NCBI GenBank assembly: GCA_041753155.1
Contig: JBGSVA010000096.1
Location: forward strand, 2,036 to 66,035
DNA: 64,000 bases
Direction: 5' to 3'
Source of the DNA: Thermodesulfobacteriota bacterium
GTDB taxonomy: Bacteria > Desulfobacterota_D > UBA1144 > Nemesobacterales > UBA2774
A program made the position numbers and the translations under genes. Shown here in pieces: positions 12,605 to 43,656 of the stretch. Every line of letters starts with the position of its first letter. The stretch's first letter is position 1. The notes under the pieces are model-generated. The model searched no databases. It was not told where the DNA came from and saw only the letters and a list, made by a program, of their open reading frames with translations.

Positions 12605-12619
12605 TTTCCCCGAATCGTC

Positions 12620-21036: not shown

Positions 21037-21299
21037 GTGACGAACCCGAGCAGCTTCCCATTTACCTTATGAGTCTACCGCCCACTGGCGTCATCATGAA
21101 CGATAAGGACGGCAATCCCTGCCAGGTGATTAGCTGGCCTATTCAGGGCGTAGGAATCGAGACTATCAAATCAATGTTTCTGAATGCATTCGACGCTGAA
21201 TTGAGCGATCAGAACGCGGAGATTTTAGACCAGGGCGGGAGGGTAAAGCTGGTAGGCAAGATACAAGATGTTGTGGTTAGCGACTCGCAGGAAGTTTAA
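21033..21299 (+). CDS. hypothetical protein (88 aa)
   Basis: ORF with an ATGA overlap with the upstream gene. Confidence 0.5.
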   Translation: MSDEPEQLPIYLMSLPPTGVIMNDKDGNPCQVISWPIQGVGIETIKSMFLNAFDAELSDQNAEILDQGGRVKLVGKIQDVVVSDSQEV

Positions 21300-21556
21300 T
21301 AAAAGTGGCAGATGAAACGAAATAAGCAATGCATATTTGTCTCTGAGTGGCACATGGGCGGCATAGGTGAGGCAGACCCGATAGAGAGTTTAGAGAAATT
21401 CATGACATTTACACGCCACTTTGAGAATTATTGTGTTATGCAGTAATGACGGGCACTTATGAAGATAGCTAGTTTACATATTGTACATTATCGGACATAA
21501 TTTCACCATTAAAATTTATAGGAAAGACACAAGATGTTGTGGTTAAGGAGCTAAGT

Positions 21557-21784
21557 ATGCATGTAAAGAAGATTGTCATTAAGGGCCACCGTCCGTATTA
21601 TGCGATAGCCGAGGCTTTCAGGGTAAAAGGCGACCCGAGCCCTAAAACGCGAATATTGGCTAACCTGGGGCATACCAAGGACCCTGATCGAGCGTATTCT
21701 AAGGCCGTCGCTCAATATCTCCGGGCTGCCGAGCGAGTATCGCGCCTTGAGGTAGCAATGGCCGGACTCGCGGGGAAGGCTTAA
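21557..21784 (+). CDS. small basic protein (75 aa) with a KGxxYYaiaEsFR..G....R.LanLG motif, as in the N-termini of some IS1634-type transposases
   Basis: AAGGAG lies 6 nt before the ATG at 21557 (the track starts at the GTG at 21539). HVKKIVIKGHRPYYAIAEAFRVKGDPSPKTRILANLGH. Confidence 0.45.
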   Translation: MHVKKIVIKGHRPYYAIAEAFRVKGDPSPKTRILANLGHTKDPDRAYSKAVAQYLRAAERVSRLEVAMAGLAGKA

Positions 21785-21981
21785 CAGCGTGGCTAAACGA
21801 ACGCACAGGGGCATATAAAGAGCATTCCCGAACTTATCAGGGCGGCTGCGCTAGTGGCTTACGGGATCGAGCTCAGCGATCTCTACGTCGAGCTTATAAT
21901 GATCCGGCAAATGTCATTCAGGGACGCTGTGAGGGAGGCCAGGAGCCACGATAGCGGGTACGCGGACGTGAGGGCGGTGCA

Positions 21982-22851
21982 TTGAGAAAGCGAAGGAAGG
22001 TCACCTGGGGGCTTATTCAGGAATCGTATGCAGTTCTATCCGAGCAGAATCCTATGACGCTCCGGCAGTTGTTTTACCAGCTCGTAACCCGGCACATCAT
22101 ACCGAATGAGCATAGTGCTTATCAGAGGCTATCCCGTGTCATGACGGATGCAAGGGACAGCGGCGATATTCCCTATGAATGGATAGTAGACCGCTCGAAG
22201 GTAGAGCGCGTTCCGAATGCATGGAGTGACCTAGAGGGTTATATGGATACTGTTACTAAGGCTTATAATAGAGACCGTTGGAAGGATCAGCCTTATCACA
22301 TAGAACTATGGCTCGAAAAGGACACACTCACCGGTTCGGTTGAGGGCCTATGCAGACAATACGGGATACCGCTAAGAGCTTATAGGGGCTTCAGCTCGAC
22401 TACTAAGAAGTGGGAAATGGCGGGGTTATTCAACAGCGTTAAGAAGCCCGTAGTAATATTTTATGTAGGAGATCACGACCCTAGCGGCCAGGACATTGAA
22501 AGGGACTTGCAATCATCCCTTCGTGGTTATGGGGCTTACAATTTCCAGATTATTCGCATTGCCATTTTCGGAGATGACATAGCGGAGTTTAAACTTCCGC
22601 CGTTGCGAATCAAGGACAAAGACCCCCGGAGTAGGAAGTTTAAATCCACTTATGGGACGGAGACGATTGAAGCCGACGCCCTGCCGCCTAATGAACTAAG
22701 ACAAAGATTGCAAGATCATCTCCTTAACCTGATAGACCGTGACGCCTGGGGGAAGTCGAAAGAAATAGAAAAGGTTGAAAAGCAATCAATCATAGATATA
22801 GTCGGCAGGTGGAAGGAGCTCAATACTCAAACTGATACTAGTATCAGTTAA
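21982..22851 (+). CDS. Spo11/Topo VI subunit A-like protein (5Y-CAP + Toprim only), 'Topo mini-A'-like
   Basis: MTLRQLFYQLV (candidate catalytic Tyr in a wHTH). HIELWLEKDTLTG (Toprim Glu, compare VEKdavf). VIFYVGDHDPSGQDIERDL (DxDPxG). 289 aa, TTG start. Confidence 0.6.
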   Translation: MRKRRKVTWGLIQESYAVLSEQNPMTLRQLFYQLVTRHIIPNEHSAYQRLSRVMTDARDSGDIPYEWIVDRSKVERVPNAWSDLEGYMDTVTKAYNRDRWKDQPYHIELWLEKDTLTGSVEGLCRQYGIPLRAYRGFSSTTKKWEMAGLFNSVKKPVVIFYVGDHDPSGQDIERDLQSSLRGYGAYNFQIIRIAIFGDDIAEFKLPPLRIKDKDPRSRKFKSTYGTETIEADALPPNELRQRLQDHLLNLIDRDAWGKSKEIEKVEKQSIIDIVGRWKELNTQTDTSIS

Positions 22852-22854
22852 GCG

Positions 22855-23034
22855 TTACTTCCCCTTCCCGCTGTACTTGGAAAGGATATGATCTATGCCC
22901 TCGACTAGCAGGTCATTAATGAACTTATCCTGTTGCACGGCTAGTAATTTGAGCTTCTTACTCTTATCCTGGGGAATCCGGGCGGCTATTTGAACGAGGT
23001 CTTTATCAGACTTGGGTTTCTTTTTTGGAGTCAT
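22855..23034 (-). CDS. ribbon-helix-helix (CopG/Arc-like) repressor, 59 aa
   Basis: KDLVQIAARIPQDKSKKLKLLAVQQDKFINDLLVEGIDHIL has the beta-alpha-alpha pattern. Start taken at the ATG at 23034, just outside the operator. Confidence 0.55.
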   Translation of the reverse strand: MTPKKKPKSDKDLVQIAARIPQDKSKKLKLLAVQQDKFINDLLVEGIDHILSKYSGKGK

Positions 23035-23059
23035 GTTAACACTATGCCATAAAACGATT

Positions 23060-23101
23060 ATTCTAACAAGTATTGACATATGAATGATAGTTTGTTAGAA
23101 T
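23060..23101. promoter_or_regulatory. operator/promoter: perfect 10-bp inverted repeat enclosing a sigma70-type promoter
   Basis: ATTCTAACAA-N22-TTGTTAGAAT. Inside it are TTGACA (23073-23078), a 17-nt spacer and TAGAAT (23096-23101), pointing at the gene at 23134. Confidence 0.6.
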
Positions 23102-23133
23102 GTTAACAAATCCAATTAAGGAGGGAGTAAGAA

Positions 23134-23595
23134 ATGAGCACATATTTAATAAAGGTAGAGAATGAGAATGGGAGTACCTGGGGTTACGCGGAGCGGGCTA
23201 AGACGATTGTAGATGCCTTATCGAATTATATTGACGGTAAGGACCAAGTGATCCCAACGGTTAAGAGCGTTCAATTTGCAACCGAGCATGAGACTTATCG
23301 GGATGTTATACACTTTGTCAGTTGCCGCCTCGATAATCTATTCACAGAGTTAAAGGGCTTAAACGAACGGGGGCGGGATCTAGCGGGGAATATCTCACCA
23401 CATGAAGATAGGCTCGTTGCGGCAGAGACCCAATGGGAAATTTACCATTTAGCGCAAGGTATGGAGAGCATACTCGGCCAAGTGAAGGATATGTGTCATC
23501 TGCATCATGCATTCAGTGAAGGACGTATAGACCTGACTTTAGAAGAAGATCAAGAGTACCGTCAGAGAATCGTAAAAAAAAGAGTTAACGGTTAA
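23134..23595 (+). CDS. hypothetical protein (153 aa)
   Basis: ORF with GGAGGGAG RBS, followed by a strong terminator. Confidence 0.55.
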   Translation: MSTYLIKVENENGSTWGYAERAKTIVDALSNYIDGKDQVIPTVKSVQFATEHETYRDVIHFVSCRLDNLFTELKGLNERGRDLAGNISPHEDRLVAAETQWEIYHLAQGMESILGQVKDMCHLHHAFSEGRIDLTLEEDQEYRQRIVKKRVNG

Positions 23596-23598
23596 CAA

Positions 23599-23628
23599 CC
23601 CCGGGGGGCTTCGGCCCCCCTTTTTTTT
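23599..23628 (+). terminator. rho-independent terminator
   Basis: ccccggggggc ttcg gcccccc followed by tttttttt. Confidence 0.8.
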
Positions 23629-23662
23629 GCCCCTGTCATTGGCTATTATGAATGGCAGGGAT

Positions 23663-24727
23663 ATGGGCGTCTATAAGCGTGTAGATAGATGGTATTTAGA
23701 TTACTACCTGCCGAACGGTCAAAGGGTGAGGGAAAGGGTCACGATTAAGGGTGTAGACCCTTCCCGGATAACCAAGAAGCTCGCCCTGGCCTCCTTATCG
23801 ATCAGAAAAGCCGAGCTCGCCGAAGGTAAATTCGATATTGTCCAGACTAGAAAGCAGGTCCTGTTTGATAAGGCGGTAAAGTCCTTCATTGAAGATTACT
23901 CGAAGATCCATAAGAAATCCTGGACGCGGGATGTTACATCTTCACGAGCTTTACAGAGTTATTTCGGCGGCAAGAGAATAAGCTCGATCAATACCTGGCT
24001 CGTGAATAAGTACCGCTCAAGGCGTCTTAATGAAGTGGCGAAGGCTACTATTAACCGGGAGCTCGCCTTTCTAAAGACTATGCTTAACTTCGCCGTTCAA
24101 AGGAACTGGCTATCTACTAATCCGCTCAAGGGTTATAAGCGCTTCCCCGAGCCCCCGAAAACAAGGATAGTTACTAAAGAAGAATTCAGGGCGGTCTATG
24201 GCGAAGCTTCCGACTTTTTGAAGCCCATACTTTTAATGGCCGTGAATACGGGTATGAGGCGCGGCGAGATATTCGATCTTAAGTGGAGTAATGTAAACCT
24301 GGCCGAAGGCTATCTCTTGGTCGAAGATTCAAAGAATAACGAGTCGAGGCATATCACTATCAATAAGCAGTTGAATGAGGCCCTAAAGTCGGTAAAATAC
24401 CATGCCTCCGGGGATTACGTATTCAGTCACGGAGGGAGCCGGGTAAAGACCTTTAAAACGGCCTTTAACGCTGCGATAAGGCGGGCTGGGGTTAAGCCGT
24501 TCAGGTTTCACGACCTGAGACATACCTTTGCGAGCAATCTTGTTATGAAGGGCGTCGATCTCGTGACCGTAGGGGAGTTACTAGGACACAAGAGCCTGTC
24601 AATGACAAGGCGCTATTCACACCCGAGCCCGGAACATAAAAAACAGGCGGTTGAGAAACTTGATTTCGATATTTCAGTCACAAAAACAGACAAAGATGAA
24701 ACCGAGATCAAAACGAAGCGCTCATAA
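23663..24727 (+). CDS. tyrosine site-specific integrase (element B)
   Basis: [22 protein letters not shown]... and [40 protein letters not shown]. Paralogous to the integrase at 10504. Ends 20 nt before the tRNA. Confidence 0.9.
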
Positions 24728-24747: not shown

Positions 24748-24824
<77 letters not shown>

Positions 24825-27921: not shown

Positions 27922-28310
27922 GTTACAACTGAGTCTGTAAGAACACAGGAAACGAGATAGTTAAATAAGTCTTGTGAGAGCCTATTTCTAAAATGAGGAG
28001 ATAATTATTAGTCCGGATTGAAGAGTCCCGCTACAGGCTAGTATAGGCTTCTGAGACTTAACATACTTTGATATGGTCGGTGGTATGAAATGTATAATAA
28101 ATATTCAGATGATATATAAATAATATACACGTCTATAACAATTGGCCACAAACACGAGCTGTATTGAAGCTTAACATCCATAAAGCATTCAATATTATTT
28201 TATGGTACACAGTTTGCAGCTATAGCAGTGCAATTAACTCTAACAGGGGGTTAAAAAAATGAAGTTTAAGGTTATCGTTCTGATTCCGGGACTCGCGCGC
28301 GGAGATTTAG

Positions 28311-29603: not shown

Positions 29604-29650
29604 CGGACTTCTAATCCGTAGGTCGGGGGTTCGAATCCCTCCGGGCGCGC
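29604..29650 (+). repeat. copy of tRNA-Arg(TCT) nt 29-75 (anticodon stem to acceptor end): att-type right boundary of island C
   Basis: cggacttctaatccgtaggtcgggggttcgaatccctccgggcgcgc is identical to 24776-24822. Confidence 0.85.
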
Positions 29651-30060
29651 TCCTTCTTTCCGAAGTGAAGTGAAAGAGTTGCAAAATTTCAAGGGCGTCC
29701 AATTGCTCCTAATTTGACTTTTGCTATGTCTTCGAGATGTGGCCTTCACGCCCATGTATTCAGCCGGAAGTGACCAATTCCTCGCTTGCTCAGAATTGTT
29801 GTTCGCAATTGTTCCTCCGGGCGCGCCACATCTTCCCGAAGCATATTTACAGTGTTGCCATTTTCCACCAGCGTCCGGTTCTTGCGCACGCTCAGAACCG
29901 TTCTCCGGGCGCGCTCCTTCTTCTCGGAGTCAAGTAGGACATTTGCCGTATATCAAGGGCGTCCGATTGCTCGCTCGCTTACAATCGTTCTCCGGGCGCG
30001 CTCTCCTTTCCCGAAGCACAGTGGCTGTGTCGCCGATTTTTCCTGCCATTTATATTCGAT
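29640..30060 (+). repeat. array of about 5 diverged units of about 87 bp, each ending (t/c)TCCGGGCGCGC and carrying an internal hairpin
   Basis: Unit ends at 29650, 29826, 29914 and 30001. Unit starts are tccttctttccgaag / cacatcttcccgaag / tccttcttctcggag / tctcctttcccgaag. The core is GGGCGTCC-stem-loop-stem-TTCTCCGGGCGCGC. Confidence 0.7.
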
Positions 30061-30090: not shown

Positions 30091-30106
30091 TGGCACAATA
30101 ATTGCC
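30091..30106 (+). promoter_or_regulatory. sigma54 (-24/-12) promoter upstream of fprA
   Basis: TGGCAC-AATAA-TTGCC matches TGGCAC-N5-TTGCW. It lies 86 nt before the TTG start at 30192. Confidence 0.65.
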
Positions 30107-30191: not shown

Positions 30192-31631
30192 TTGAGCAAT
30201 ATCGAAGCAAACTCAAATCCTATCAGAGCAGCTATAATCGGTTCGGGCCCTGCCGGGTTTTATGCCGCCGATCACCTGTTAAAGAGCAAGGAAGTCCAAG
30301 TGGAGATCGATATGTACGACAGGCTCCCTACGCCCCATGGACTCGTAAGGAGCGGAGTCGCGCCCGATCACCAGAAGATCAAATCGGTAACGAGGGTCTA
30401 TGACAAAATCGCGAAAGACCCGAGGTTCAGGTTCATAGGCTTCGTAGAATACGGCAAGCACATACATCTCGAAGACCTCGAAAAGCATTATCACATCGTA
30501 GTTTTCGCGACCGGCGCGCAGACCGACAGGCGCATGAATATCCCGGGCGAAGACCTCAGAGGGAGCCATCCAGCAACCGAGTTCGTCGCGTGGTATAACG
30601 GTCATCCCGATTACAGGAACCTCGAATTCGACCTTTCCTGCGAGACGGCGGCGATCATCGGAGTGGGCAACGTGGCGATCGACGCCGCGAGGATCCTGTG
30701 CCTCTCGGAAAGCGAGCTCAAAGCCACCGATATTGCGGACCACGCTCTCAAAACCCTGCTAAACAGCAGGATCAGGGATATATATATAATAGGCCGCCGG
30801 GGCCCGGCTCAGGCCTCGTTCACGAACCCGGAGCTCCGCGAGCTCGGCGAGCTCGAAGACGCGGCCCCGGTTGCGCTCGGAGAAGAGGTCGAGCCCGACG
30901 AGCTCTCGCTTGAGGAAATCGAAAAGAGCGGCGACGATGCGGTAGTGAGGAGACTGGGGATACTTAAAGAATATGCCTCCAATACCTCTCTCGATAAAGG
31001 CAAGAGGCTCCACCTGAGATTCCTGCTATCCCCCGTCGAGATAATCGACAGGGGCGACGGGAGCGCGGGCGTCCTTCGCCTTGCGAAAAACGAGCTCTAC
31101 AGGTCAGAGGACGGCAGCATAAGGTCGAGAGCCTCAGGCCAGCACATAGAAATACCCGCCGGCCTCGTGTTCCGCTCGATAGGTTATCAGGGAATACCTC
31201 TCCCCGGAGTCCCTTTCAACCACAAATGGGGGACGATACATAACGAGAAGGGAAGGGTTACAGCCCCCGGGACTAACGCGCAGATTCCGGGCCTGTACAC
31301 GACCGGCTGGATCAAGCGGGGCGCTTCGGGAGTCATCGGCACGAATAAAACGGACTCGGCGGAAACGGTCGCCTGCATTATTGAGGACGTCAAAAACGGA
31401 ATCACGCTCACGTCCGGGAGTACCGGAAACGGCCGGGTGGAGGAATTAATAAGGGAAAGGCAGCCACACTACGTGACTTATGAGGACTGGCTCAGGATTG
31501 ACAGCCTGGAGGTGGCGAGAGGGGAGGAATGCGGAAGACCGCGACTCAAATTCACGACGATCGAGGAGATATTTACAGCATTAAAAGGAGCGGGTTACGT
31601 GACTGAACACTTCGGCGCCGAGAAAAGGTGA
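30192..31631 (+). CDS. fprA: FprA/adrenodoxin-reductase-type NADPH:ferredoxin oxidoreductase
   Basis: AAIIGSGPAGFYAADHLLK...YDRLPTPHGLVRSGVAPDHQKIKSV...AAIIGVGNVAIDAARIL. Confidence 0.8.
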   Translation: MSNIEANSNPIRAAIIGSGPAGFYAADHLLKSKEVQVEIDMYDRLPTPHGLVRSGVAPDHQKIKSVTRVYDKIAKDPRFRFIGFVEYGKHIHLEDLEKHYHIVVFATGAQTDRRMNIPGEDLRGSHPATEFVAWYNGHPDYRNLEFDLSCETAAIIGVGNVAIDAARILCLSESELKATDIADHALKTLLNSRIRDIYIIGRRGPAQASFTNPELRELGELEDAAPVALGEEVEPDELSLEEIEKSGDDAVVRRLGILKEYASNTSLDKGKRLHLRFLLSPVEIIDRGDGSAGVLRLAKNELYRSEDGSIRSRASGQHIEIPAGLVFRSIGYQGIPLPGVPFNHKWGTIHNEKGRVTAPGTNAQIPGLYTTGWIKRGASGVIGTNKTDSAETVACIIEDVKNGITLTSGSTGNGRVEELIRERQPHYVTYEDWLRIDSLEVARGEECGRPRLKFTTIEEIFTALKGAGYVTEHFGAEKR

Positions 31632-31778
31632 TCTTTTCGCAGCTGCGCACGAGCCCCTGGCCGGCATATATAACCGGCCGGTTTACGTGCCGCACCCTTC
31701 TCAAGTTGGGCGGCAGGGGTTTGAGCAGATTCATGGGATTACTCCTGAAAAAAGTAACCCCCGTGTGTCATTTTGTAA

Positions 31779-31808
31779 ACAATTTTGTAAGGTATCTTAC
31801 AAATTTGT
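31779..31808. promoter_or_regulatory. 30-bp palindromic upstream activator site (contains TGT-N10-ACA)
   Basis: ACAATTTTGTAA-GGTATC-TTACAAATTTGT. The core TGTAAGGTATCTTACA is at 31786-31801, about 100 bp upstream of the sigma54 promoter. Confidence 0.6.
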
Positions 31809-31894
31809 AAGTTTATACAAATCGGCTGCCGTCTCCCATCCCCCGTTACGCCCTAAACTTGGCATTTTCTCCATTGTGCAGTGCAGAAGAAAAA

Positions 31895-31910
31895 TGGCAT
31901 ACAAGTTGCA
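31895..31910 (+). promoter_or_regulatory. sigma54 promoter of the nitrite/nitrate reductase operon
   Basis: TGGCAT-ACAAG-TTGCA. Confidence 0.7.
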
Positions 31911-32043: not shown

Positions 32044-35000
32044 ATGTGTGTATCAAGGGAGAGAGTAGTCGTCATAGGTAACGGGATGGTGGGACAATCC
32101 GCCGTCGAGCACATACTCAGAAACAAGAATGAAAAAATAGAGATCGTCGTCTTCGGCGAGGAGCCCGACCACAGTTATAACAGGATTCTCTTATCCGAGG
32201 TCTTATCGGGGAAGAAGAGCTTCTCCCAGCTCTACCTGAAAAAAAGAAAGTGGTTCGAAGAAAACGGGGTAAAGCTCTATACACGCTCGCGCGTAACCGA
32301 GATAGACACCGCGGGCGGCAGGGTCCGCTCGGAAAACGGGTTCTCTTCGCCGTACGATAAACTGCTCATAGCGACCGGGAGCGTCGCTTTCATCCCGCCT
32401 ATAAAAGGGGCCGACAAGAACGGCGTATTCGCATACAGGACGATAGACGACGTCTGGTCGATGCTCGAGGTGTCACGATACAAAAAGAACGCGGTAGTGA
32501 TAGGAGGGGGTCTCCTCGGGCTCGAAGCCGCGAAGGCCCTCAAGGACAACGGTATGGAAGTGACTGTGGTCCACCTCGTCGATCACCTGATGGAGCAGCA
32601 GCTCGATTACGATTCCGGGCTGATGCTGGAGAGGCTCATTGAGAAGCTGGGGATAAGGTTCAGGATGAAGGCGGTCACGGAAGAGATACTCGGCGAGGGA
32701 AGGGCGGAGGCGGTCAGGCTAGAGTCGGGTGAAATACTCGATGCCGACCTCGTGCTAATATGCACGGGCATAAGACCCAACGTCGAGCTCGCAAAAAAAG
32801 CGGGGGCGCTGGTGAAGAGGGGGATCGTGGTGAACGACTACCTTCAGACGAGCCTCGACAACATCTATGCGTTAGGCGAGTGCGTCGAGCACAGGGGATC
32901 GGTTTACGGGCTCTTCGATCCGTTAATAGCGCAGGCGCGCGTGGTCGCCGATTCCGTCGCCGGAAACGGGGATTCCGTGTACGAAGGGTCCCTCGTATCG
33001 GCAGTGCTGAAAGTAGCCGGTGTAAATCTGGTGTCCGTGGGCAGCTTCAACGGAGGGGAAGGGTGCGAGGACCTGGTTTACTCGGACCCGGAGCGCGGTG
33101 TATACAAGAAGCTCGTATTCAAAGACAACCATATAGTAGGCGCAATATTCCTGGGAGACATAAAAGATTACAGAAAGATTTTCAAATTTATAACCGATAA
33201 AGTCAGCGTAAACGGGAACAGGCAGGACCTCCTGCTCGGCGACCGCGCGGACAAGGCAGCTCCAAAAACTTCGGAAGAGAACGTCCGGGCCGATGAGCCC
33301 GAGCTCAAAGACATCCCGCTCACTCCCGAGAATCCAATGTACGCATCTCAGGACCTGCACCCCCGTCCTCCCAAGAGCCCGTGGTTAGGAAAGATCAACC
33401 CCGGAGAGATCAAAGCGCGCGGGATGGAAGTCGATTTCGACCGTTACAGGAAAGAGGGCTTCGCCTCGATAGACCCGAGCGATTTTCTGAGACTTAAGTC
33501 GCACGGGTACTGCAGCCAGAAACAGGAAGGATACTTCATGAGGCGCATCAGGGTGCCGGGAGGACAGATTACTGCGCCGCAGCTCATGACCGTAGCGGAA
33601 TTAGCCGAGAAATACGGCGGTTGGGTGCACATCACCACGCGTCAGGCCCTCGAGCTCCACTGGACGACGATAAACGACGCCGAGATCGACGAGCGGCTGA
33701 GGCAAGTCGGCCTCTCGACGCGCTCCGCGTGCGGGCATGCGATAAGGAATGTCACCTGCTCTGAGGAGGCCGGGATAGGGGCGGACGAAATACTCGACGT
33801 GAGGCCCTGGGTGAAAGTGGCCCATGATTACATAGTAACGAATTCGCTTGCGATCAATAAGAAACTCCCCCGGAAGATGAACGTCTACTTTGCGAATAGT
33901 CCGCAGCACCGCTCTCATGCCATGGTGAACGACATCGGTTACGTCGCCGTCGAGGCTGCGCACGAAGGCTCTCTAGTTCCCGGATTCGAGGTATGGGTCG
34001 GAGGCAGTCTCGGCTCGAAGCCCCATTTATCTCAAAGACTAATAGAGTTCATCCCTCCCGAGCAGACCGTTCCGGTCCTGAAAACTATAATAGAAATTTA
34101 TTCGAGGCACGGGAACATGAGCGAGAGCAAGAACCCCCGCTTGAAAGAGCTCGTCGAGACCTGGGGCTTCGACAAGTTCCGGGAGGAGTTCTCGAGCATC
34201 TACTACTCTAAATTCTCCCCGCTCCACGGCGTGGAAGTGAAAGACGACCCCTCCTATCACGGAGAAATCGATAAGGAAGGAATTTATCCGCAGAAGCAGG
34301 AAGGGTATTTCAGGGTCGTAGTGAGAGTGCCGCTCGGGGAGCTGACCGCGGCGCAAACTAAATGCATCTCGAGACTATGCCTCGATTATGCCGACGGGAA
34401 AATTCAGAACACGATGCAGCAGAATTTCGAGCTCCAGTGGGTGAGGAAGGACAAGCTCCCGAAGCTCCTTGCGGAGTTGGGCGCAATCGGGCTCGGACCG
34501 AAAGGCTCGGGCTCAATACTCGACGTGATGGCCTGCCCGGGCACCACCTTCTGCGTCTGGGGGGTTTCGAACTCGCAGGGTACGGGCGATTCGCTCATAA
34601 GGCACCTCGGCGGGAAAGGCTATCTCGAGGACGGGGAGATAAGAAAGCTGCGTATACAAATATCGGGCTGCCCCAATAGCTGCGCCCAGCACCAGGTGGC
34701 CGATATAGGACTATCGGGGAGCGCGGGAAAATATTTTCTATACCTGGGCGGCCACATGAACGGCACCACAAAGGTGGGGGAAGTAGTGAGAAGAAATATA
34801 GTTGCGAGCGAAGTCAACGACACGATCGATACTGTCCTCAGGACCTACATCGAGATGAGGGACGAAGGAGAACCCTTCGCCGGCTTCGTCCACAGAGTGG
34901 GGATCGACAATCTCGCGGAGATAATAGCGGGGCTCCTGGATTCGCCCGAGGCTGCCGAAGCCCGTAAGAAATTAGAGAAGACTGAAACTGCCCTGTCCAA

Positions 35001-35274
35001 AGATCTGGCTCAGGGAGAATTCTCGGTCAAGTTCAAGGTGAGCGGCAAAACCCTCACCGTCAAAGGTACTGAAACGATATTACAGAAAGGGCTCGACGAG
35101 GGGTTGAGCCTGCCCTTCAGCTGTCAGCAGGGCGTCTGCGGGACCTGCAAGCTCAGAGTGAGGGGCAGGTTCGAGCAGGGCAACGTCGAGGGGATAACAC
35201 CCGAAGAGATAGCGTCGGGAGAGGCGCTCATCTGCATGGCGAAACCGAGAGGAGATATGGAGGTGGACGCGTAG
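32044..35274 (+). CDS. triple-fusion reductase: NirB-like FAD/NAD(P)H module + two siroheme nitrite/sulfite-reductase repeats + C-terminal plant-type [2Fe-2S] ferredoxin
   Basis: VVVIGNGMVGQSAVEHIL and AVVIGGGLLGLEAAKAL (Rossmann motifs). ACPGTTFC...SGCPNSCAQHQVADIGLSG (siroheme/4Fe-4S Cys). SCQQGVCGTCKLRV...ALICMA (ferredoxin). Confidence 0.75.
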   Translation: MCVSRERVVVIGNGMVGQSAVEHILRNKNEKIEIVVFGEEPDHSYNRILLSEVLSGKKSFSQLYLKKRKWFEENGVKLYTRSRVTEIDTAGGRVRSENGFSSPYDKLLIATGSVAFIPPIKGADKNGVFAYRTIDDVWSMLEVSRYKKNAVVIGGGLLGLEAAKALKDNGMEVTVVHLVDHLMEQQLDYDSGLMLERLIEKLGIRFRMKAVTEEILGEGRAEAVRLESGEILDADLVLICTGIRPNVELAKKAGALVKRGIVVNDYLQTSLDNIYALGECVEHRGSVYGLFDPLIAQARVVADSVAGNGDSVYEGSLVSAVLKVAGVNLVSVGSFNGGEGCEDLVYSDPERGVYKKLVFKDNHIVGAIFLGDIKDYRKIFKFITDKVSVNGNRQDLLLGDRADKAAPKTSEENVRADEPELKDIPLTPENPMYASQDLHPRPPKSPWLGKINPGEIKARGMEVDFDRYRKEGFASIDPSDFLRLKSHGYCSQKQEGYFMRRIRVPGGQITAPQLMTVAELAEKYGGWVHITTRQALELHWTTINDAEIDERLRQVGLSTRSACGHAIRNVTCSEEAGIGADEILDVRPWVKVAHDYIVTNSLAINKKLPRKMNVYFANSPQHRSHAMVNDIGYVAVEAAHEGSLVPGFEVWVGGSLGSKPHLSQRLIEFIPPEQTVPVLKTIIEIYSRHGNMSESKNPRLKELVETWGFDKFREEFSSIYYSKFSPLHGVEVKDDPSYHGEIDKEGIYPQKQEGYFRVVVRVPLGELTAAQTKCISRLCLDYADGKIQNTMQQNFELQWVRKDKLPKLLAELGAIGLGPKGSGSILDVMACPGTTFCVWGVSNSQGTGDSLIRHLGGKGYLEDGEIRKLRIQISGCPNSCAQHQVADIGLSGSAGKYFLYLGGHMNGTTKVGEVVRRNIVASEVNDTIDTVLRTYIEMRDEGEPFAGFVHRVGIDNLAEIIAGLLDSPEAAEARKKLEKTETALSKDLAQGEFSVKFKVSGKTLTVKGTETILQKGLDEGLSLPFSCQQGVCGTCKLRVRGRFEQGNVEGITPEEIASGEALICMAKPRGDMEVDA

Positions 35275-35323: not shown

Positions 35324-38300
35324 TTGGAACTGAATCCAGCTAATCAGCATAGAACCGTGTGTCCCTACTGCGGGGTAGGGTGCGGGGTAATCCTCGAGAC
35401 AGGCGGAGGGAAAGTCCTCGGCGTCAGGGGCGACCCGGACCATCCCTCGAATTGGGGGAAGCTCTGCTCGAAGGGACTCAACCTTCATCACACGATCCAC
35501 AAGAAGGACAGACTCACGCACCCGTTGATGAGAGACTCCAGGCTCTCCCCGTTCACTTCGACTACATGGGATAAAGCGTTAGACAGGATCGCCGACAAAT
35601 TCCGGAGTCTTATAAATGATTACGGGCCTGAGTCGATAGCCTTTTATATTTCCGGGCAGCTCCTCACCGAAGATTATTACGTCGTCAACAAGCTCTCGAA
35701 GGGGTTCCTCAAGGTGAACAACCTCGATTCCAATTCCCGCCTCTGCATGTCCTCAGCCGTCATGGGGTACAGACGGGCGTTCGGCGTGGACGCACCGCCC
35801 TGCTCTTACGAGGACATAAAGCACACGGACTGCGTATTCATAATCGGCTCAAACATGGCCTACTGCCATCCCGTCGTGTTCATGCAGTTAGCCGAAGAGA
35901 AGGAGAAAAAGGGAGACGGTCTCAAGATCATCGTGGCCGATCCGAGGAAAACGCCTACCGCAGGCATAGCCGACATATTCATACCGCTCAAGCCGGGCAC
36001 GGACGTGGCGCTGCTTAATTCCATGATCCACGTGCTCATCGAAAACGGTCTCGTCGATGACGGCTACGTAAACTCGTACACGGAAGGTTTCGACAGTCTT
36101 AAGGAAACTGTCGGAGAATACACGCCGGAAAAAGTATCGGAAATCTGCGGCATACCGGCGAGCCTCATAACAGAGGCTGCTCTCGCGTTCGGAAGAGCGG
36201 ACGCGGCAATGAGCTTCTGGGCGATGGGCCTCAACCAGAGCAGCTCGGGCACTGACAAGAACAACGCGCTCATAAATCTATCCATCGTCACGGGAAACGT
36301 CGGGAAACCGGGCGCAGGCCCCTTCTCGCTCACGGGGCAGGCAAACGCCATGGGGGGCAGGGAGACGGGCGGGCTTGCCAACATCCTGCCCGGACACCGC
36401 TACATGGCGGATGCGGAGCATAGAAAAGAGATAGGGGAGAAATGGGGCGCGGACGAGCTCTCTCCGGCAAAAGGGCTCACGGCGGTAGAGATATACGACG
36501 GGATAAATAACGGCAAGATAAAAGCCGTATGGATAATATGCACTAATCCTGTCGTATCGCTTCCCAACGGCGCGAAAGTAGAAGACGCTCTCGGGAAAGC
36601 CGAGCTCGTCATAGTCCAGGACATCTTCCACCCGACGGATACCACAATTTTCGGAGACATCCTCCTCCCCGCAGCCGGCTTCAGCGAGAAGGAAGGGACG
36701 ATGACGAACCAGGAGCGGAGGATATCTCACATCGCGAAAGCTATCGATCCCCCAGGCGTTGCGATGCCGGACTGGCAGATATTCACGAAGTTTGCGCATA
36801 AGATGGGCTTCGGCGAGCATTTCAAATACGAGCGGGCAGAAGACGTTTTCGAGGAATATAAGCAATTGAGCAGAGACCGGGACGTCGATATCAGGGGCGT
36901 AACGTACGAGAGGCTGAACGGATCGGGGCCCATACAGTGGCCCTGCCCCGACGCCGGGCACCCTGGCACCCCGAGATTATATACGGACGGAATCTTTCAT
37001 ACGGAGAGCGGGAAAGCAAAAATTATGACTGTGCATTACAACCCGCAGAAGGAAGTCCCCGACCCCGAGTATCCGCTAGTATTCACGACAGGGCGCGTGA
37101 GGGACCAGTGGCACACGATGACGAAGACCGGAAAGGTGGAGAGCCTCACGAAGAACGAGCCCGAGCCCGTACTTGAAATAAACCCTGAAGACGCCGAAAC
37201 ATACGGTCTCCGGGAGGGCGACCTCGCTCTCGTGGAATCGCGGAGAGGGAAAACGACTGTGCGGTGCAAGGTGACGGACAGGGTGAGGGAAGGAACAGTA
37301 TTCCTGCCGTTTCACTGGGGGAGACTCCTTGCGAATAACGGGAGGGCGAACCTCCTGACTTTAGAAGCGATCGACCCTTACTCCCAGCAGCCGGAATTCA
37401 AGGCGTGCGCGGTCAGGGTGAAGAGGAAGTCGTTCGACGAGAGCGTGAGAGTCCTCATACTCGGTAATGACCCGGCCGCGCCTGAGCTGGCGGGCGGGAT
37501 CAACGGCATAAATCCCAACGTGGATATAACACTCGTCACTTCTGCCGAGAACGTGTCGAACGGCGGTATAAGAATCAGCAGAAAAATTCCCGTGAACATC
37601 GACACGGACAGAAAGATCGTCGAATTCGCCGACGGTGATGCGCTCGGCTACGATAAGCTCGTATTTTCTCCGGGAAAGAAGACTTACCTTCCGCCTATAA
37701 AGGGGTTTTCATTCGAAGGTATAAGGGCAATACGCAATTTTGAAGAAGCAAAAAAGCTGATCGCAAAGGAGCTCGTCCTCGGAAAAACGGTCGTGATGGG
37801 CTCGAGACCCTCCGCTATTGAAACCGCGGATTTGTTAAAGTCCCGCGGGGCGGACGAGGTTTATCTCATAGACCCCGACAATGTGCTCCTCGACAAATAC
37901 GTCGATTACGAAGGCTCCCAATTTATTTATCACAAGCTGACAAAGAAAGGGATAAAGATAATCCTGGGCGCGGAAGTTGAAGAGATCGTAGAAAAAGAGG
38001 GGCGAAAAAAAATAGTGCTCGGGCGCGGGAGGGAAATAGACGCGGACCTCATATTCATCGAATCCATAATGAAGCCCGATCTGGAGCTGCCTCTTAAGAC
38101 CGGCCTTCTCATCAATAAAGGGTTAGTCGCGGGCGAGCAGATGGAGACGAATATCCCCGACGTATACGCCGTAGGGAAAACAGCGGAGGTCAAAGGGGTG
38201 ATCACGAACGACCCTGAGCTCCTGAAGATGCAGGCCGATGTATTGGCGAGACACATTAGCGGCGACCCGACGGCGCGTTACACGGAGTCGGTCGACGCGA

Positions 38301-38740
38301 ACCGCTTCCGCATTATGGGACTCGATATAATTTCGTTCGGCCAATTCAACGCCGACGACGAAAAGTCGAACGTGCTCACGTTTCACGACAAAGGTCAGGC
38401 GGTATATAAAAAGATAGTGATTCGCGGGAACCGTATAGTCGGCGGATTCTACCTCGGAGACACGTCCGGGGCGGAGGAAGTGTTGGCGCTCGCCCGGAGA
38501 GCGTCCGACATTTCGAGGTATAGAGACACGCTCCTCTCGGGGAATTTCAAGGAGAAGCTCCCGTCGGGTAGGGTCGTATGCTCCTGCATGTCAGTGACGG
38601 AGGACGAGATAGCGCTCGCGATAAATAACGGAGCTAATAACATAGAGGCGCTCAAGGAGAGGCTCAAAGTGGCCGTCACGTGCGGCACGTGTCTTGAAGA
38701 GGTGAAGGATCTTTTGAGGAGAGCAAATCCCGCGCATTAG
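35324..38740 (+). CDS. nasA: assimilatory nitrate reductase (NasA-type molybdopterin enzyme) fused to a NirB-like module with degenerate dinucleotide motifs and a BFD-like [2Fe-2S] end
   Basis: CPYCGVGCGV...CSKG (N-terminal 4Fe-4S). EPVLEINPEDAETYGLREGDLALVESRRG...FLPFHWG (Mo-binding barrel). C-terminal CSCMSVTEDEIALAI...VTCGTCLEEV. TTG start. Confidence 0.8.
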   Translation: MELNPANQHRTVCPYCGVGCGVILETGGGKVLGVRGDPDHPSNWGKLCSKGLNLHHTIHKKDRLTHPLMRDSRLSPFTSTTWDKALDRIADKFRSLINDYGPESIAFYISGQLLTEDYYVVNKLSKGFLKVNNLDSNSRLCMSSAVMGYRRAFGVDAPPCSYEDIKHTDCVFIIGSNMAYCHPVVFMQLAEEKEKKGDGLKIIVADPRKTPTAGIADIFIPLKPGTDVALLNSMIHVLIENGLVDDGYVNSYTEGFDSLKETVGEYTPEKVSEICGIPASLITEAALAFGRADAAMSFWAMGLNQSSSGTDKNNALINLSIVTGNVGKPGAGPFSLTGQANAMGGRETGGLANILPGHRYMADAEHRKEIGEKWGADELSPAKGLTAVEIYDGINNGKIKAVWIICTNPVVSLPNGAKVEDALGKAELVIVQDIFHPTDTTIFGDILLPAAGFSEKEGTMTNQERRISHIAKAIDPPGVAMPDWQIFTKFAHKMGFGEHFKYERAEDVFEEYKQLSRDRDVDIRGVTYERLNGSGPIQWPCPDAGHPGTPRLYTDGIFHTESGKAKIMTVHYNPQKEVPDPEYPLVFTTGRVRDQWHTMTKTGKVESLTKNEPEPVLEINPEDAETYGLREGDLALVESRRGKTTVRCKVTDRVREGTVFLPFHWGRLLANNGRANLLTLEAIDPYSQQPEFKACAVRVKRKSFDESVRVLILGNDPAAPELAGGINGINPNVDITLVTSAENVSNGGIRISRKIPVNIDTDRKIVEFADGDALGYDKLVFSPGKKTYLPPIKGFSFEGIRAIRNFEEAKKLIAKELVLGKTVVMGSRPSAIETADLLKSRGADEVYLIDPDNVLLDKYVDYEGSQFIYHKLTKKGIKIILGAEVEEIVEKEGRKKIVLGRGREIDADLIFIESIMKPDLELPLKTGLLINKGLVAGEQMETNIPDVYAVGKTAEVKGVITNDPELLKMQADVLARHISGDPTARYTESVDANRFRIMGLDIISFGQFNADDEKSNVLTFHDKGQAVYKKIVIRGNRIVGGFYLGDTSGAEEVLALARRASDISRYRDTLLSGNFKEKLPSGRVVCSCMSVTEDEIALAINNGANNIEALKERLKVAVTCGTCLEEVKDLLRRANPAH

Positions 38741-38754: not shown

Positions 38755-39744
38755 ATGGTGCTTAAAGACTCGTTCGGAAGAGTGGTCAATAATCTGAGGA
38801 TATCCGTTACCGACAGGTGCAATTTTAGGTGCATGTACTGCATGCCCGCGCACGGAATGGTCTGGCTGGACAAGGACAAGATACTGAGCTTCGAAGAGAT
38901 ATCGAGGCTCGCAAAAATATTCTCGGGTCTCGGCGTGAGCAAGATACGGCTCACAGGGGGCGAGCCGCTCATGAGAAAGGAGCTCCACGTCCTCGTACGC
39001 ATGCTCGCAAGCGTCGGGGGTGTTAGGGACATATCCCTCACGACAAACGGATACTTTCTGGAGGAGCAGGTGGAAATGCTCTCGGATGCAGGGCTGAACA
39101 GGATCAACGTAAGCCTCGATTCCCTTAAGCGGGACAGCTTCGCCGAGATAACGAGAAGGAGCTACTACGAAAAGGTCATGCGCGGGATCGCCGAAGCAGC
39201 GCGCACAAGGCTCCGCCCGATAAAGTTAAACGTCGTGTTAATAAGAGGGTTCAACGACGGCGAGATACTCGATTTCGCTGAGCTTGCGCGCAAAAGCAAT
39301 TTCATCGTCCGGTTCATAGAGTTCATGCCCATAGGGAGCGGGGAGGACTGGAACATCGAACAGGTGGTAACGGAGGACGAAATAATCGGAACGATAGAGC
39401 ACGGCCTCGGCATGAGGCTCATCCCCAGGAATCTCAGGGAAAGCCAGCCCGCGGACAGCTACGTATTCGAAGACGGTAAGGGCGAGATAGGGTTCATAAG
39501 CTCCGTGAGCAGCCCCTTTTGTGAAAACTGTAACCGCGTGAGAATAACGTCTGACGGCAAGCTCAGGACATGTCTCTTCTCTTTAGGCGAGACCGATCTG
39601 AGGAGGATGCTCAGGGAAGGCGCGAGCGACCGGGAGATCAGGGACGTCATCACCGGCGCAGTATTGAGGAAGGAGCGGGGACACCTCATAAACAAACCGG
39701 GCTTCATAAAGCCTTCGAGAACGATGTCACAGATAGGGGGATAG
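38755..39744 (+). CDS. moaA: GTP 3',8-cyclase MoaA (radical SAM)
   Basis: LRISVTDRCNFRCMYCMP...IRLTGGEPL...C-terminal CENCNRVRITSDGKLRTCLF. Confidence 0.9.
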   Translation: MVLKDSFGRVVNNLRISVTDRCNFRCMYCMPAHGMVWLDKDKILSFEEISRLAKIFSGLGVSKIRLTGGEPLMRKELHVLVRMLASVGGVRDISLTTNGYFLEEQVEMLSDAGLNRINVSLDSLKRDSFAEITRRSYYEKVMRGIAEAARTRLRPIKLNVVLIRGFNDGEILDFAELARKSNFIVRFIEFMPIGSGEDWNIEQVVTEDEIIGTIEHGLGMRLIPRNLRESQPADSYVFEDGKGEIGFISSVSSPFCENCNRVRITSDGKLRTCLFSLGETDLRRMLREGASDREIRDVITGAVLRKERGHLINKPGFIKPSRTMSQIGG

Positions 39745-39778: not shown

Positions 39779-40951
39779 ATGATCGACTCGCTCTACAAAA
39801 CATTTAAGTCCCGCATAAGGATAGACAGGAACGAGCTCTCGGGCGCTTTCGGGGACATCGGCACGGACCTGCCGCTGATCATCGGTATTTTGCTCGTTTC
39901 GGGCCTCGACCCGGTAAGCGTATTCGTGATGTTCGGCCTCACCCAGATATTCTCGGGACTATTCTACGGCATCCCCATGCCTGTCCAGCCGTTAAAGGCC
40001 GTGGCAGTCATGGCGATATCACAGCACCTGGGAGCAGACATCATACTTGCGGCGGGGATCGGTCTCGGCATCGTTATGCTGTTCCTCAATATCACGGGCC
40101 TGATAAAATCGATATACAGGGTAATCCCCGACTGCGTCGTCAGGGGAATTCAGTTCGGACTCGGCGTGAACCTCCTCCTCCTTGCCCTGACCGACTACAT
40201 ACCATCACAGGGACTGAACGGCATTTTTCTCGCCGCTATAGGTTTGGTCATAGTATTCTTACTGATCGGAAACAGGAAATACCCTCCGGCGCTTGCGGTA
40301 ATTTTACTCGGACTCCTTTATGCATTGATCGTCAACTCTGACTCCGCGCCTGTAATCCCGCACGCGGGACTCCCGCTTCTCTCTCTCCACACGCCTTCGC
40401 TATACGACATACTGACCGGCTTTCTCATTCTCGGTCTCCCGCAGCTCCCGCTTTCCATATCGAATTCTCTCATAGCGACGAAGAAGCTCGCGGACGACCT
40501 GTTCCCTGAGAAAAAACTAACTGTAAGCAAGTTTGCGAACACTTACTCGCTTATGAATATCGTAAACCCGCTCCTGGGCGGTATCCCCGTATGTCACGGC
40601 TCGGGGGGACTCGCGGGTCATTATGCATTCGGCGGAAGGACGGGAGGGACGCTCCTCCTCTACGGCTCCATATATCTCCTGATCGGGATTTTTCTCGCAG
40701 GCGATTACGCATCGGTCCGCGCGCTTTTCCCCCTCCCGGTCCTGGGCGTTATTTTGTCGGTCGAAGGTTTTTCTCTGGCTAAATTCATCAAAAAGACCGC
40801 CGGGTCGAAGGAGCTCATAATAGCGCTCACAGTCGGCTTTATCTGCGTCTTTGTAACGAGCGGATACGTTTACGGTCTCATGGCCGGCATGCTGATCTAC
40901 TATCTCGAACCCATAGCAAGGAGGTCGCTCGGAGTAAGGAATGAAAGTTAA
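39779..40951 (+). CDS. MOT1-family (SulP-related) putative molybdate transporter
   Basis: ELSGAFGDIGTDLPLIIGI...FYGIPMPVQPLKAVAVMAIS closely resembles the plant MOT1 signature (GAxGDLGTxIPI / YGVPMPVQPMK). Multi-TM. Confidence 0.7.
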   Translation: MIDSLYKTFKSRIRIDRNELSGAFGDIGTDLPLIIGILLVSGLDPVSVFVMFGLTQIFSGLFYGIPMPVQPLKAVAVMAISQHLGADIILAAGIGLGIVMLFLNITGLIKSIYRVIPDCVVRGIQFGLGVNLLLLALTDYIPSQGLNGIFLAAIGLVIVFLLIGNRKYPPALAVILLGLLYALIVNSDSAPVIPHAGLPLLSLHTPSLYDILTGFLILGLPQLPLSISNSLIATKKLADDLFPEKKLTVSKFANTYSLMNIVNPLLGGIPVCHGSGGLAGHYAFGGRTGGTLLLYGSIYLLIGIFLAGDYASVRALFPLPVLGVILSVEGFSLAKFIKKTAGSKELIIALTVGFICVFVTSGYVYGLMAGMLIYYLEPIARRSLGVRNES

Positions 40952-41645
40952 TGTCCTCTTATTCGGCAGACTGACTCAGGTCGCAGGCGGAAAAGAACTT
41001 GCTGTCCGTCTTGAAAAAGACAGCTGCTCCGTTAAGGAAATGACGGACTCTTTGTTCCGCGTTCATCCGATGCTCAGGGAAGAAACATTCCGTGTCGTCG
41101 TGAACCGGTCTATTTCTCACGATGACGACATGATCGCAGACTCGGACGAAGTCGCGCTCCTGCCCCCTATATCGGGAGGCAATTTCACTTACCTCACGGA
41201 AAGCGCCATCACCCACGAGTTCGTCGAAAGCGTATCGCGGGCAGGCCGACAGGGCGCGGGCTCGCTGCTCATTTTCGAGGGGATCGTAAGAAATGATCAC
41301 GCTGCTCAAAAATCAGGCACGGGGAAGGCAATTAAAAAAGTAGTTTCGATAACGTACTCGGCGTATGAAGAGATGGCGGAAAGGGAAATAAACAAAATTA
41401 TCCTCACCGCAAAAGAGAATTTCCGACTCCGGGACGTCGTGCTCCGACACAGGACGGGCGAGGTCGCGGCCGGTGAGATCGCTTTTTTCGTTGCGGTCTC
41501 TTCTGAGCACAGGAAGGAAGGGATTGCAGGCATTGATTTTATTATAGATGAAGTGAAATCGAAGGTACCCGTATGGAAACAGGAGAATTACGACGACGGC
41601 TCCGGGAGCTGGAAAGAGGGAAGGCTTATCGAATGTGGCGCTTGA
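40941..41645 (+). CDS. MoaD-MoaE fusion (molybdopterin synthase small + large subunit)
   Basis: Residues 1-80 end in LLPPISGG (MoaD/ThiS C-terminal Gly-Gly, nt 41175-41180). The rest is MoaE-like (LIFEGIVRN...YSAYEEMAE...VSSEHRKE...VPVWKQE). Confidence 0.8.
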   Translation: MKVNVLLFGRLTQVAGGKELAVRLEKDSCSVKEMTDSLFRVHPMLREETFRVVVNRSISHDDDMIADSDEVALLPPISGGNFTYLTESAITHEFVESVSRAGRQGAGSLLIFEGIVRNDHAAQKSGTGKAIKKVVSITYSAYEEMAEREINKIILTAKENFRLRDVVLRHRTGEVAAGEIAFFVAVSSEHRKEGIAGIDFIIDEVKSKVPVWKQENYDDGSGSWKEGRLIECGA

Positions 41646-41755
41646 AGAGCGTGCGGCCCGGATTTTAAACCGGGCCTTTACTATAAATAATTGCGAAAAA
41701 CGGCATATAAATTGCCTGTTTAATCTAACCAACAAGACAGCGGAGGGAATACAAA

Positions 41756-43630: not shown

Positions 43631-43656
43631 TTCATGCCGGCCGGGTAAACATATTT

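Follow-up and report, generated by a model that had tools for sequence, protein, structure and literature searches.

A 64,000-nucleotide stretch of a Thermodesulfobacteriota contig (JBGSVA010000096.1; hereafter the window) encodes nitrate and nitrite reductases, enzymes of molybdenum cofactor (Moco) synthesis, and, at positions 49647 to 51209 on the minus strand, a NifA-family activator. We conclude that two palindromes of 30 and 34 bp in this cluster are quite probably enhancers of this activator, from which it would switch on the nitrate/nitrite assimilation (nas) and Moco genes through sigma-54 promoters. The sequence-only reading from which we started had proposed a dedicated NifA-like activator for these genes, a proposal that is supported at the level of sequence and that the related genomes strengthen.

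Results

Palindromic dyads lie upstream of the predicted nirB and narK promoters

A repeat finder returned a 30-bp palindrome, ACAATTTTGTAA-GGTATC-TTACAAATTTGT, upstream of the nirB operon at positions 31779 to 31808. Its 13-nt arms (31779 to 31791 and 31796 to 31808) are 92% complementary, making it a near-perfect palindrome with one mismatch. This candidate upstream activator sequence (UAS-1; listed without strand) reads ACAA-TT-TTGTAA-N6-TTACAA-AT-TTGT, and the center of its core dyad, TTGTAAGGTATCTTACAA (31785 to 31802), falls 103 bp upstream of the -24 GG. Within the core, TGTAAGGTATCTTACA (31786 to 31801) follows the rule TGT-N10-ACA, which is the canonical NifA site. A weaker flanking dyad of the same TGT-N10-ACA form, TGTCATTTTGTAAACA (31766 to 31781, without strand), begins 20 bp upstream of the core, and extra half-sites are found at 31805 to 31810 (TTGTAA) and 31815 to 31820 (ATACAA).

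The predicted nirB-operon promoter, TGGCAT-ACAAG-TTGCA (TGGCATACAAGTTGCA; 31895 to 31910, plus strand), has no mismatches to TGGCAY-N5-TTGCW and carries its GG and GC doublets 10 bp apart. Transcription is predicted to start near position 31920, which gives a leader of ~124 nt. The sequence-only reading had described a palindrome with a TGT-N10-ACA core ~100 bp upstream of this promoter, as we indeed observed. It had also called the promoter both near-consensus and perfect; the first term holds, and the second is slightly generous, since the element begins with TGGCAT and not TGGCAC.

The same architecture is repeated before narK, again as the earlier reading had noted. There, the repeat finder returned a 34-bp palindrome, TTACAACTTTGTAA-GAGTAT-TTACAAAATTGTAA, at 43655 to 43688 with 14-nt arms that are 93% complementary. 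The full enhancer candidate (UAS-2; 43643 to 43688, without strand) consists of GGGTAA-N6-TTACAA (43643 to 43660), CT, the core TTGTAAGAGTATTTACAA (43663 to 43680), and AA-TTGTAA, and TGTAAGAGTATTTACA (43664 to 43679) again fits TGT-N10-ACA. The core is centered 112 bp upstream of the -24 GG of a sigma-54 element, TGGCAC-GGCAA-TTGCC (TGGCACGGCAATTGCC; 43782 to 43797, plus strand; one mismatch, at the last position), the second dyad lies at -132, and narK starts at 43846. The dyad-plus-promoter observation is confirmed.

As had been suggested, we scanned for the palindrome and for -24/-12 elements, taking the 64-kb window as the search space. Exact TTGTAA-N6-TTACAA occurs in only two copies, both upstream of -24/-12 elements of nas operons, and was found in 0 of 100 dinucleotide-preserving shuffles. 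Sigma-54-like elements are enriched in the window (11, versus 2.35 expected).

Both enhancer candidates share a layout of alternating hexamers, TTACAA-NN-TTGTAA-N6-TTACAA-NN-TTGTAA. Read as TGT-N10-ACA units, this layout comprises one strong central dyad, a weaker dyad exactly 20 bp upstream of it (at -132 for narK, -123 for nirB, and -136 in the related locus L098), and a conserved half-site 20 bp downstream. The narK promoters likewise have a dyad 20 bp upstream of the core. With three units spaced at intervals of two helical turns, three dimers could sit on the same face of the helix. This stoichiometry, which we infer from the spacing, would suit formation of the AAA+ hexamer in the way suggested for NorR and NtrC.

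The dyad, promoter, and activator gene are conserved together

Homologs of the activator were traced to contigs at 89, 72, 67, 58, 58, and 56% identity (loci L081, L082, L083/84, L098, L101, and L102, respectively). Nitrate/nitrite reductase and Moco genes adjoin the activator gene in all of these loci, and the gene order of the window, including narK-porin-mobA-moaCB-moeA, is retained in L081 to L084. We aligned four narK upstream regions, those of the window, L081, L082, and L084, whose activators are 67 to 100% identical. In this alignment, 11 of the 12 core hexamer positions are invariant, as are 10 of the 16 positions of the sigma-54 element, versus 0 of 6 in the spacer and only 17% of the 92 bp between dyad and promoter. 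The distance from dyad to GG is held at 111 to 112 bp in all four, and the alignment revealed no other conserved enhancer-like block between the dyads and promoters.

The UAS-1 dyad, with a different spacer, also precedes nirB-type operons elsewhere. It lies at -105 in L085 (a relative at 97%, located through NirB), at -97 in L089, at -116 in L098 (activator 58% identical), and at -118 in L102 (56%); the L089 site, ACAATAATGTAA-GCAGAC-TTACATTATTGT, is a perfect 30-bp palindrome. The nirB sigma-54 promoter is identical in L085, and functionally equivalent promoters are present in L089, L098, L102, and L007. The last of these, a Hydrogenothermaceae (Aquificota) metagenome-assembled genome (MAG), is the most distant case: its activator is 44% identical, and the activator gene sits beside cobA-nirA-MFS-nasA. 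Upstream of this operon is CTGTAA-ACAAAA-TTACAA-AA-TTGTAA-TTACAA-AA-ATGTAA, followed 108 bp downstream by TGGCACAGGAATTGTA.

Taken together, the dyad, sigma-54 promoter, spacing, and activator gene co-occur in at least 8 genomes of two phyla; seven further nas-linked genomes have activators 44 to 89% identical to that of the window and the dyad at -97 to -118. Such co-occurrence is the pattern predicted for an activator and the enhancer that it recognizes. In four further loci (L086 to L088 and L091), nirD and other genes lie upstream of nirB, and the promoters fall at or beyond the edge of the retrieved DNA; in L087 and L088, a sigma-54 promoter is visible, and the dyad region is off the edge or unclear. 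The Aquifex sp. MAG locus L010 lacked both a clear nas context and a match to the sigma-54 pattern.

Two additional features of L007 were observed. Its assimilatory nitrate reductase (16799 to 19273) has a C-terminal globin domain (PF00042, E = 5.7e-12), and TTACAAAATTGTAA, an everted hexamer pair as in the enhancers, occurs at 9950 to 9990 directly before the activator start codon, where it may indicate autoregulation.

The cluster encodes an intact enhancer-binding protein of the Nlh type

The gene at 49647 to 51209, which is convergent with the cluster genes, encodes a 520-residue protein with GAF, Sigma54_activat (PF00158, E = 5.7e-74), AAA_lid, and HTH_8 domains by Pfam and NCBIfam, in agreement with the earlier description of a GAF-AAA+-HTH activator gene closing the cluster. 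By its sequence, the protein is an intact enhancer-binding protein, with Walker A (GESGTGKE) and Walker B (DEIGD) motifs, an L1 loop (GSFTGA), and a Fis-type helix-turn-helix with helix TTRQLDYRISKYGI. It scored 549.2 bits against the nifA equivalog model TIGR01817 (cutoff, 528.85) and 347 bits, below the cutoff of 476, against the NorR model NF003451. The match to the NtrC-type model TIGR01818 (337.8 versus 558.6) covered the AAA+ part only; the N terminus is a GAF domain and not a receiver domain.

Over its full length, the protein is matched best among solved structures by a NifA (9qq6_C, E = 1.4e-120). The GAF domain, however, is closer to Nlh1 (4g3k, E = 2.9e-23) and Nlh2 (4g3v, E = 6.9e-17) than to the NifA GAF domains (E = 4.5e-15, for 8jrc, and 1.6e-13), and the DNA-binding domain best matches 2m8g_X (E = 2.2e-15, compared with 4e-8 for NifA), which we take to be the DNA-binding domain of Aquifex Nlh2. 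The activator has the recognition helix RQLDYRI, which 2m8g_X shares exactly, whereas NifA has RQIAYRI.

No database record was identical to the activator sequence. Its relatives are named "nif-specific transcriptional activator NifA" or "nif-specific regulatory protein" (PGAP, JGI), and those at 58 to 59% identity are labeled Thermodesulfobacteriota or Deltaproteobacteria. The L1 loop (50389 to 50406, minus strand; residues 272 to 277) is GSFTGA, not GAFTGA, in the activator and in nas-linked relatives at 58 to 89% identity (P0007, P0012, P0017, and P0021). GAFTGA is kept in the homologs from bacterium HR37, two Nitrospirota-type genomes, and Hydrogenothermaceae.

Assimilatory reductases and Moco genes make up the predicted regulon

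Gene functions were assigned by Pfam and NCBIfam profile searches. Downstream of the nirB promoter, all on the plus strand, a 1,076-residue fusion of a NirB-type FAD/NAD(P)H reductase, a sirohaem nitrite/sulfite reductase, and a 2Fe-2S ferredoxin (32044 to 35274) is followed by a 1,138-residue assimilatory nitrate reductase (35324 to 38740), in which a NasA/NasC-type molybdopterin enzyme is joined to an FAD/NAD reductase and a BFD-like 2Fe-2S domain. Next come moaA (38755 to 39744), a MOT1-type molybdate transporter gene (39779 to 40951), and a moaD-moaE fusion (40941 to 41645), which most likely belong to the same operon as nirB-nasA, since they share its strand and are separated by short gaps.

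The second predicted target group, also on the plus strand, comprises narK (43846 to 45183), a gene for an Alginate_exp-type outer membrane porin (45342 to 46814), mobA (46842 to 47492), a moaC-moaB/mog fusion (47503 to 48423), and moeA (48431 to 49639). Between the two groups lies a gene for a 624-residue NirA-type ferredoxin-nitrite reductase with a NirD-like Rieske domain (41756 to 43630, plus strand). A third sigma-54-like element, cGGCAT-ATAAA-TTGCC (cGGCATATAAATTGCC; 41701 to 41716, plus strand), stands ~40 bp before this gene with no dyad of its own. It is preceded, 3' of moaDE, by a GC-rich hairpin (41655 to 41676) with a T run, and it is conserved in L081 and L082 and missing in L084. 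It may depend on the narK enhancer, at a distance of 2 kb, or on unbound activator.

Just upstream of the nirB enhancer, another sigma-54-like element, TGGCACAATAATTGCC (30091 to 30106, plus strand), is followed by a gene for a GltD-like FAD/NAD oxidoreductase (30192 to 31631). Homologous Pyr_redox_2 genes follow nasA within the nas operons of L101 (15264 to 16712) and L102 (11598 to 12041), and the GltD-like product may be an electron donor partner of the nitrate or nitrite reductase. We rejected a weak dyad, TTGCTCGCTCGCTTACAA (29967 to 29984), as a confident site: it has three mismatches, lies inside a repeat array, and differs in position from L085 (-117 versus -82). Because this position is not conserved in L085, the GltD-like gene is an uncertain extra member of the regulon.

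The activator gene may itself be controlled through sigma-54

The activator gene has a predicted sigma-54 promoter, TGGCAT-GCAAT-TTGCA (TGGCATGCAATTTGCA; 51251 to 51266, minus strand), ~40 bp before its ATG and with no mismatches. Every orthologous activator gene examined (L081, L082, L084, L098, L099, L101, and L102) likewise has its own sigma-54 promoter. Centered 70 bp upstream of the activator promoter GG is a dyad of the form TGC-N11-ACA (TGCTTATTAATTCGACA; 51327 to 51343, minus strand), whose geometry is that of the enteric NtrC consensus TGCACC-N5-GGTGCA and which is a candidate site for a second activator. Five genomes have a TGC-N11-(G/A/T)CA dyad at -70 to -73, and L099 has one at -93; in L084 and L099, GTGC-N11-GCAC is perfect. 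The sigma-54 promoter and the position-conserved dyad of NtrC geometry suggest, with modest confidence, a two-tier cascade in which a general nitrogen activator would induce the Nlh-type activator and this in turn the nas and Moco genes. The Klebsiella pathway from NtrC to nifA to the nif genes is a parallel.

The GAF domain might respond to 2-oxoglutarate, as Azotobacter NifA does, to nitrate or nitrite, or to a P-II protein. A CHASE2-guanylate/adenylate cyclase gene lies upstream of the activator gene in L081 (7503 to 9773), L101 (4002 to 9773), and L102 (3960 to 9634), and not in the window; in L101 and L102, the module adds a mechanosensitive channel that binds cyclic nucleoside monophosphates (cNMP) and a class II phosphodiesterase. 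Cyclic nucleotides are frequent ligands of GAF domains, so the module could hint at the signal.

Other features of the window

The 3' 47 nt of a tRNA-Arg(TCT) gene (24748 to 24824) are repeated exactly 4.8 kb downstream, at 29604 to 29650, in the manner of att sites. These repeats bracket an AT-rich insert with a nitroreductase-like open reading frame (ORF), transposase fragments, and a beta-carbonic anhydrase gene, which has a sigma-54-like element ahead of it (28203 to 28218). Three further degenerate repeat units starting with CTCCGGGCGCGC follow at 29815, 29903, and 29990 (period, ~88 bp), and the nas cluster comes directly after this array.

Upstream of the tRNA gene, the region from 7708 to 24727 resembles a mobile element, with a Prim-Pol gene (7708 to 10098), two tyrosine integrase genes (10504 to 11583 and 23627 to 24727), a gene for a sigma-70 region 4 protein (11834 to 12475), and several large ORFs without a Pfam match, one of 1,498 residues (14700 to 19196). 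On the other side of the cluster, divergent sigma-54-like elements (59203 to 59188, minus strand, and 59399 to 59414, plus strand) lie between amine oxidase family and radical SAM genes (region 57656 to 61278), and a Crp/Fnr-family regulator gene (60553 to 61278; cNMP-binding and HTH_Crp_2 domains) follows the radical SAM gene. BioB at the window end is 85% identical to a Thermodesulfobacteriota MAG protein, which, with the labels of the activator relatives, points to an uncultured lineage of that phylum as the probable source.

Discussion

The arrangement described above suggests how the nas cluster might be switched on. Dimers of the activator would occupy the central dyad TGTAA-N6-TTACA, which is a TGT-N10-ACA site, with weaker binding at the flanking dyads or half-sites spaced 20 bp from it. 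On receipt of a signal by the GAF domain, the AAA+ domains would form a hexamer, which would loop to RNA polymerase-sigma-54 at the -24/-12 element ~105 to 115 bp downstream and open the promoter by ATP hydrolysis. The predicted targets are the nirB-nasA-moaA-MOT1-moaDE and narK-porin-mobA-moaCB-moeA operons, and possibly nirA-Rieske through the third sigma-54-like promoter. In that case, the uptake of nitrate, its reduction to ammonium, and the supply of Moco would come on together, with general nitrogen limitation inducing the activator and the activator inducing the nas and Moco genes. The sigma-54 dependence, the three-dimer stoichiometry, the GAF ligand, and the cascade are all inferred, as is the pairing of protein with palindrome; this last we base on co-conservation, the TGT-N10-ACA rule, the NifA-type recognition helix, and the reported precedent from Aquifex.

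Several observations weigh against this model. No convincing dyad was found at the third sigma-54-like promoter (41701 to 41716) or at the promoter of the GltD-like gene (30091), and rpoN lies outside the window. Among the matches listed from a scan of genome contigs with the activator, relatives at or below 47% identity were nas linked at only 1 of 80 loci (L007); the distant full-length homologs (40 to 47%; Planctomycetota, Spirochaetes, and Bacteroidales) in that set are mostly not beside nas genes and are without the dyad. Homologs in bacterium HR37 and a Nitrospiria MAG (51% identical) adjoin P-II/amtB (glnB/amtB) genes, implying that the family is not uniformly nas specific. Finally, the dyad fits geometries that belong to another regulator family, that of CRP and FNR, of which the window encodes one member (60553 to 61278).

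This last point underlies the alternative that a CRP/FNR-family regulator, of NtcA or CRP type, uses the palindrome as its operator and that the sigma-54 activator works from another site or from solution. As is well established, TGTAA-N6-TTACA is a CRP-type 5-N6-5 arrangement and TGTA-N8-TACA is the NtcA consensus, and the Crp-family gene is 10 kb away. We nevertheless regard this explanation as unlikely. The dyads lie ~120 to 140 bp upstream of the predicted starts rather than at -41.5, neither has a -10 box ~22 bp downstream, and a scan for sigma-70 promoters showed no enrichment. It is relative to the sigma-54 element that the dyad distance is fixed, and the activator gene is always present in the syntenic loci, whereas a Crp-family gene is not among their called genes. 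A sigma-54 promoter depends on an enhancer, a role for which no other conserved element is available.

Slightly less likely still is that, as for the nas genes of Klebsiella or Azotobacter, the general nitrogen regulator NtrC drives the nirB and narK promoters and that the palindrome binds the cluster protein or another factor only as a modulator or repressor. Control of nas genes by sigma-54 and NtrC is a textbook case, and the locus does contain a dyad of NtrC geometry, although before the activator gene. No conserved NtrC-like site was seen, however, upstream of the nirB or narK promoters, where the TGT-N10-ACA palindrome is the sole conserved upstream element, and the intact ATPase and L1 loop of the cluster protein mark it as an activator. 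An additional layer of NasR/NasT-type antitermination or of riboswitch control was also considered and is unsupported: no ANTAR or NIT domain occurs in the cluster genes scanned, the fold of the nirB leader is not significant (z = -0.7), and an Rfam search matched only a tRNA and nothing in this leader.

Could the protein instead be a genuine nif-specific NifA, placed near nas genes incidentally or engaged in cross-regulation? Its score above the TIGR01817 cutoff, the names of its relatives, and its best full-length PDB match would all fit, yet we judge this improbable. We noticed no nif gene in the larger ORFs of the 64-kb window, in which no dedicated nifHDK search was made, and none is among the called genes of L081 to L084, L098, L101, and L102. 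It is nas operons that follow the TGT-N10-ACA sites, the GAF domain resembles Aquifex Nlh1 (E = 2.9e-23) more than it does the NifA GAF domains (E = 4.5e-15 and 1.6e-13), and Aquifex is established to be without nitrogenase. That the palindromes are chance AT-rich symmetry or mobile element relics with no regulatory role, for which one could cite the att-like repeats and insertion sequence fragments upstream of the cluster, is barely credible given the absence of the dyad from all 100 shuffles, the retention of the hexamers while the spacer varies in two phyla and down to 44% activator identity, and the fixed promoter phase.

The closest precedent is in Aquifex. According to Studholme et al. 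2000, this organism reportedly lacks nitrogenase and has predicted sigma-54 promoters before its nitrate and nitrite reductase genes; purified AQ_218, a NifA-like protein, reportedly binds ~100 bp upstream of a sigma-54 nirB promoter. Nlh1 and Nlh2 of Aquifex aeolicus are presumably AQ_218 and its paralog, with GAF structures 4G3K/4G3W (Nlh1) and 4G3V (Nlh2) and DNA-binding domain 2M8G that we take to be those of Batchelor et al. 2013. Like the Nlh proteins, the activator of the window has GAF-AAA+-HTH order, with Nlh1 as the closest solved GAF domain and 2m8g_X as the closest solved DNA-binding domain, its host is not known to fix nitrogen, and its gene is linked to nitrate/nitrite assimilation genes with sigma-54 promoters; the Aquificota locus L007 has the same dyad, promoter, and gene arrangement. 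Unlike them, it belongs to another phylum (its best named relatives are from Thermodesulfobacteriota MAGs, and it is ~44 to 47% identical to Aquificota proteins), it is accompanied by an extended, conserved 30- to 34-bp palindrome, it has a GSFTGA L1 loop, and its gene is predicted to be sigma-54 dependent. The predicted regulon also includes a full Moco biosynthesis set, a molybdate transporter, and a porin.

The activator shares with NifA (TIGR01817; 9QQ6 and 8JRC) its domain order, a score above the cutoff, the TGT-N10-ACA site, and an enhancer ~100 bp upstream of a -24/-12 element, and its gene has a sigma-54 promoter, as does nifLA in Klebsiella. It differs in that the predicted targets are nas and Moco genes rather than nif, no nifL or nif neighbors were seen, the GAF domain is closer to that of Nlh1, and the palindrome extends to ACAA-N2-TTGTAA-N6-TTACAA-N2-TTGT. 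Sigma-54-dependent nas transcription, and probably an upper tier of general nitrogen control, are common to this system and to NtrC with NasR (Klebsiella) or with NasS/NasT (Azotobacter, Pseudomonas, and Paracoccus); the pathway-specific step here, however, would be activation by a dedicated enhancer-binding protein and not antitermination. NorR, a GAF-AAA+-HTH sensor of nitric oxide, resembles the activator in being a one-component enhancer-binding protein under GAF control, in having several tandem dyads (three, in its case) upstream of a sigma-54 promoter, and in a function related to nitrogen oxides, but it recognizes GT-N7-AC sites and acts on norVW or hmp, and the NorR model score of the activator is below the cutoff. 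In Nitrospira, NifA-like regulators adjoin nxrAB (PMC6606698). They too are NifA-family activators tied to nitrogen oxyanion metabolism in nondiazotrophs, although their target is a nitrite oxidoreductase and no binding site is defined (PMC6606698).

The sequence-only reading had set this system apart from the NtrC/NasR, NasST, and NtcA schemes, and that distinction stands. The arrangement is not unprecedented: in 2000, the Nlh proteins of Aquifex aeolicus were reportedly tied to sigma-54 promoters of nitrate/nitrite assimilation genes. A review describes Nlh1 as a presumed regulator of nitrogen assimilation and not of fixation (PMC9866876). The kind of system is therefore already known, if little known; what the window adds is a footprinted operator, a different phylum, and a complete Moco supply in the regulon, together with the GSFTGA variant of the nas-linked clade, evidence pointing to a sigma-54 cascade, and the fact that the NifA equivalog model names such proteins nif specific. 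More tentatively, the nas-linked "NifA" clade might consist of one-component GAF sensors of nitrate, nitrite, or 2-oxoglutarate that act below an NtrC-type activator and coinduce the nas genes and Moco supply.

The window offers a concrete predicted set of operator, promoter, and activator for nitrate assimilation in an uncultured Thermodesulfobacteriota lineage, and it extends a sparsely studied observation in Aquifex to other phyla. It also provides a natural example of predicted coregulation, in which genes for Moco biosynthesis, molybdate uptake, and a porin would be switched on along with the enzymes that rely on them. Regulators that are very probably not nif specific are caught by the NCBI NifA equivalog model, which matters for annotation and for inferring diazotrophy from metagenomes. 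If the nas-linked "NifA" clade does consist of such GAF sensors, many proteins automatically annotated as NifA in nondiazotrophic Thermodesulfobacteriota, Nitrospirota, NC10, and Aquificota would be regulators of nitrogen oxyanion metabolism or nitrogen assimilation, and "NifA" would be unsafe as a marker of diazotrophy in metagenomes.

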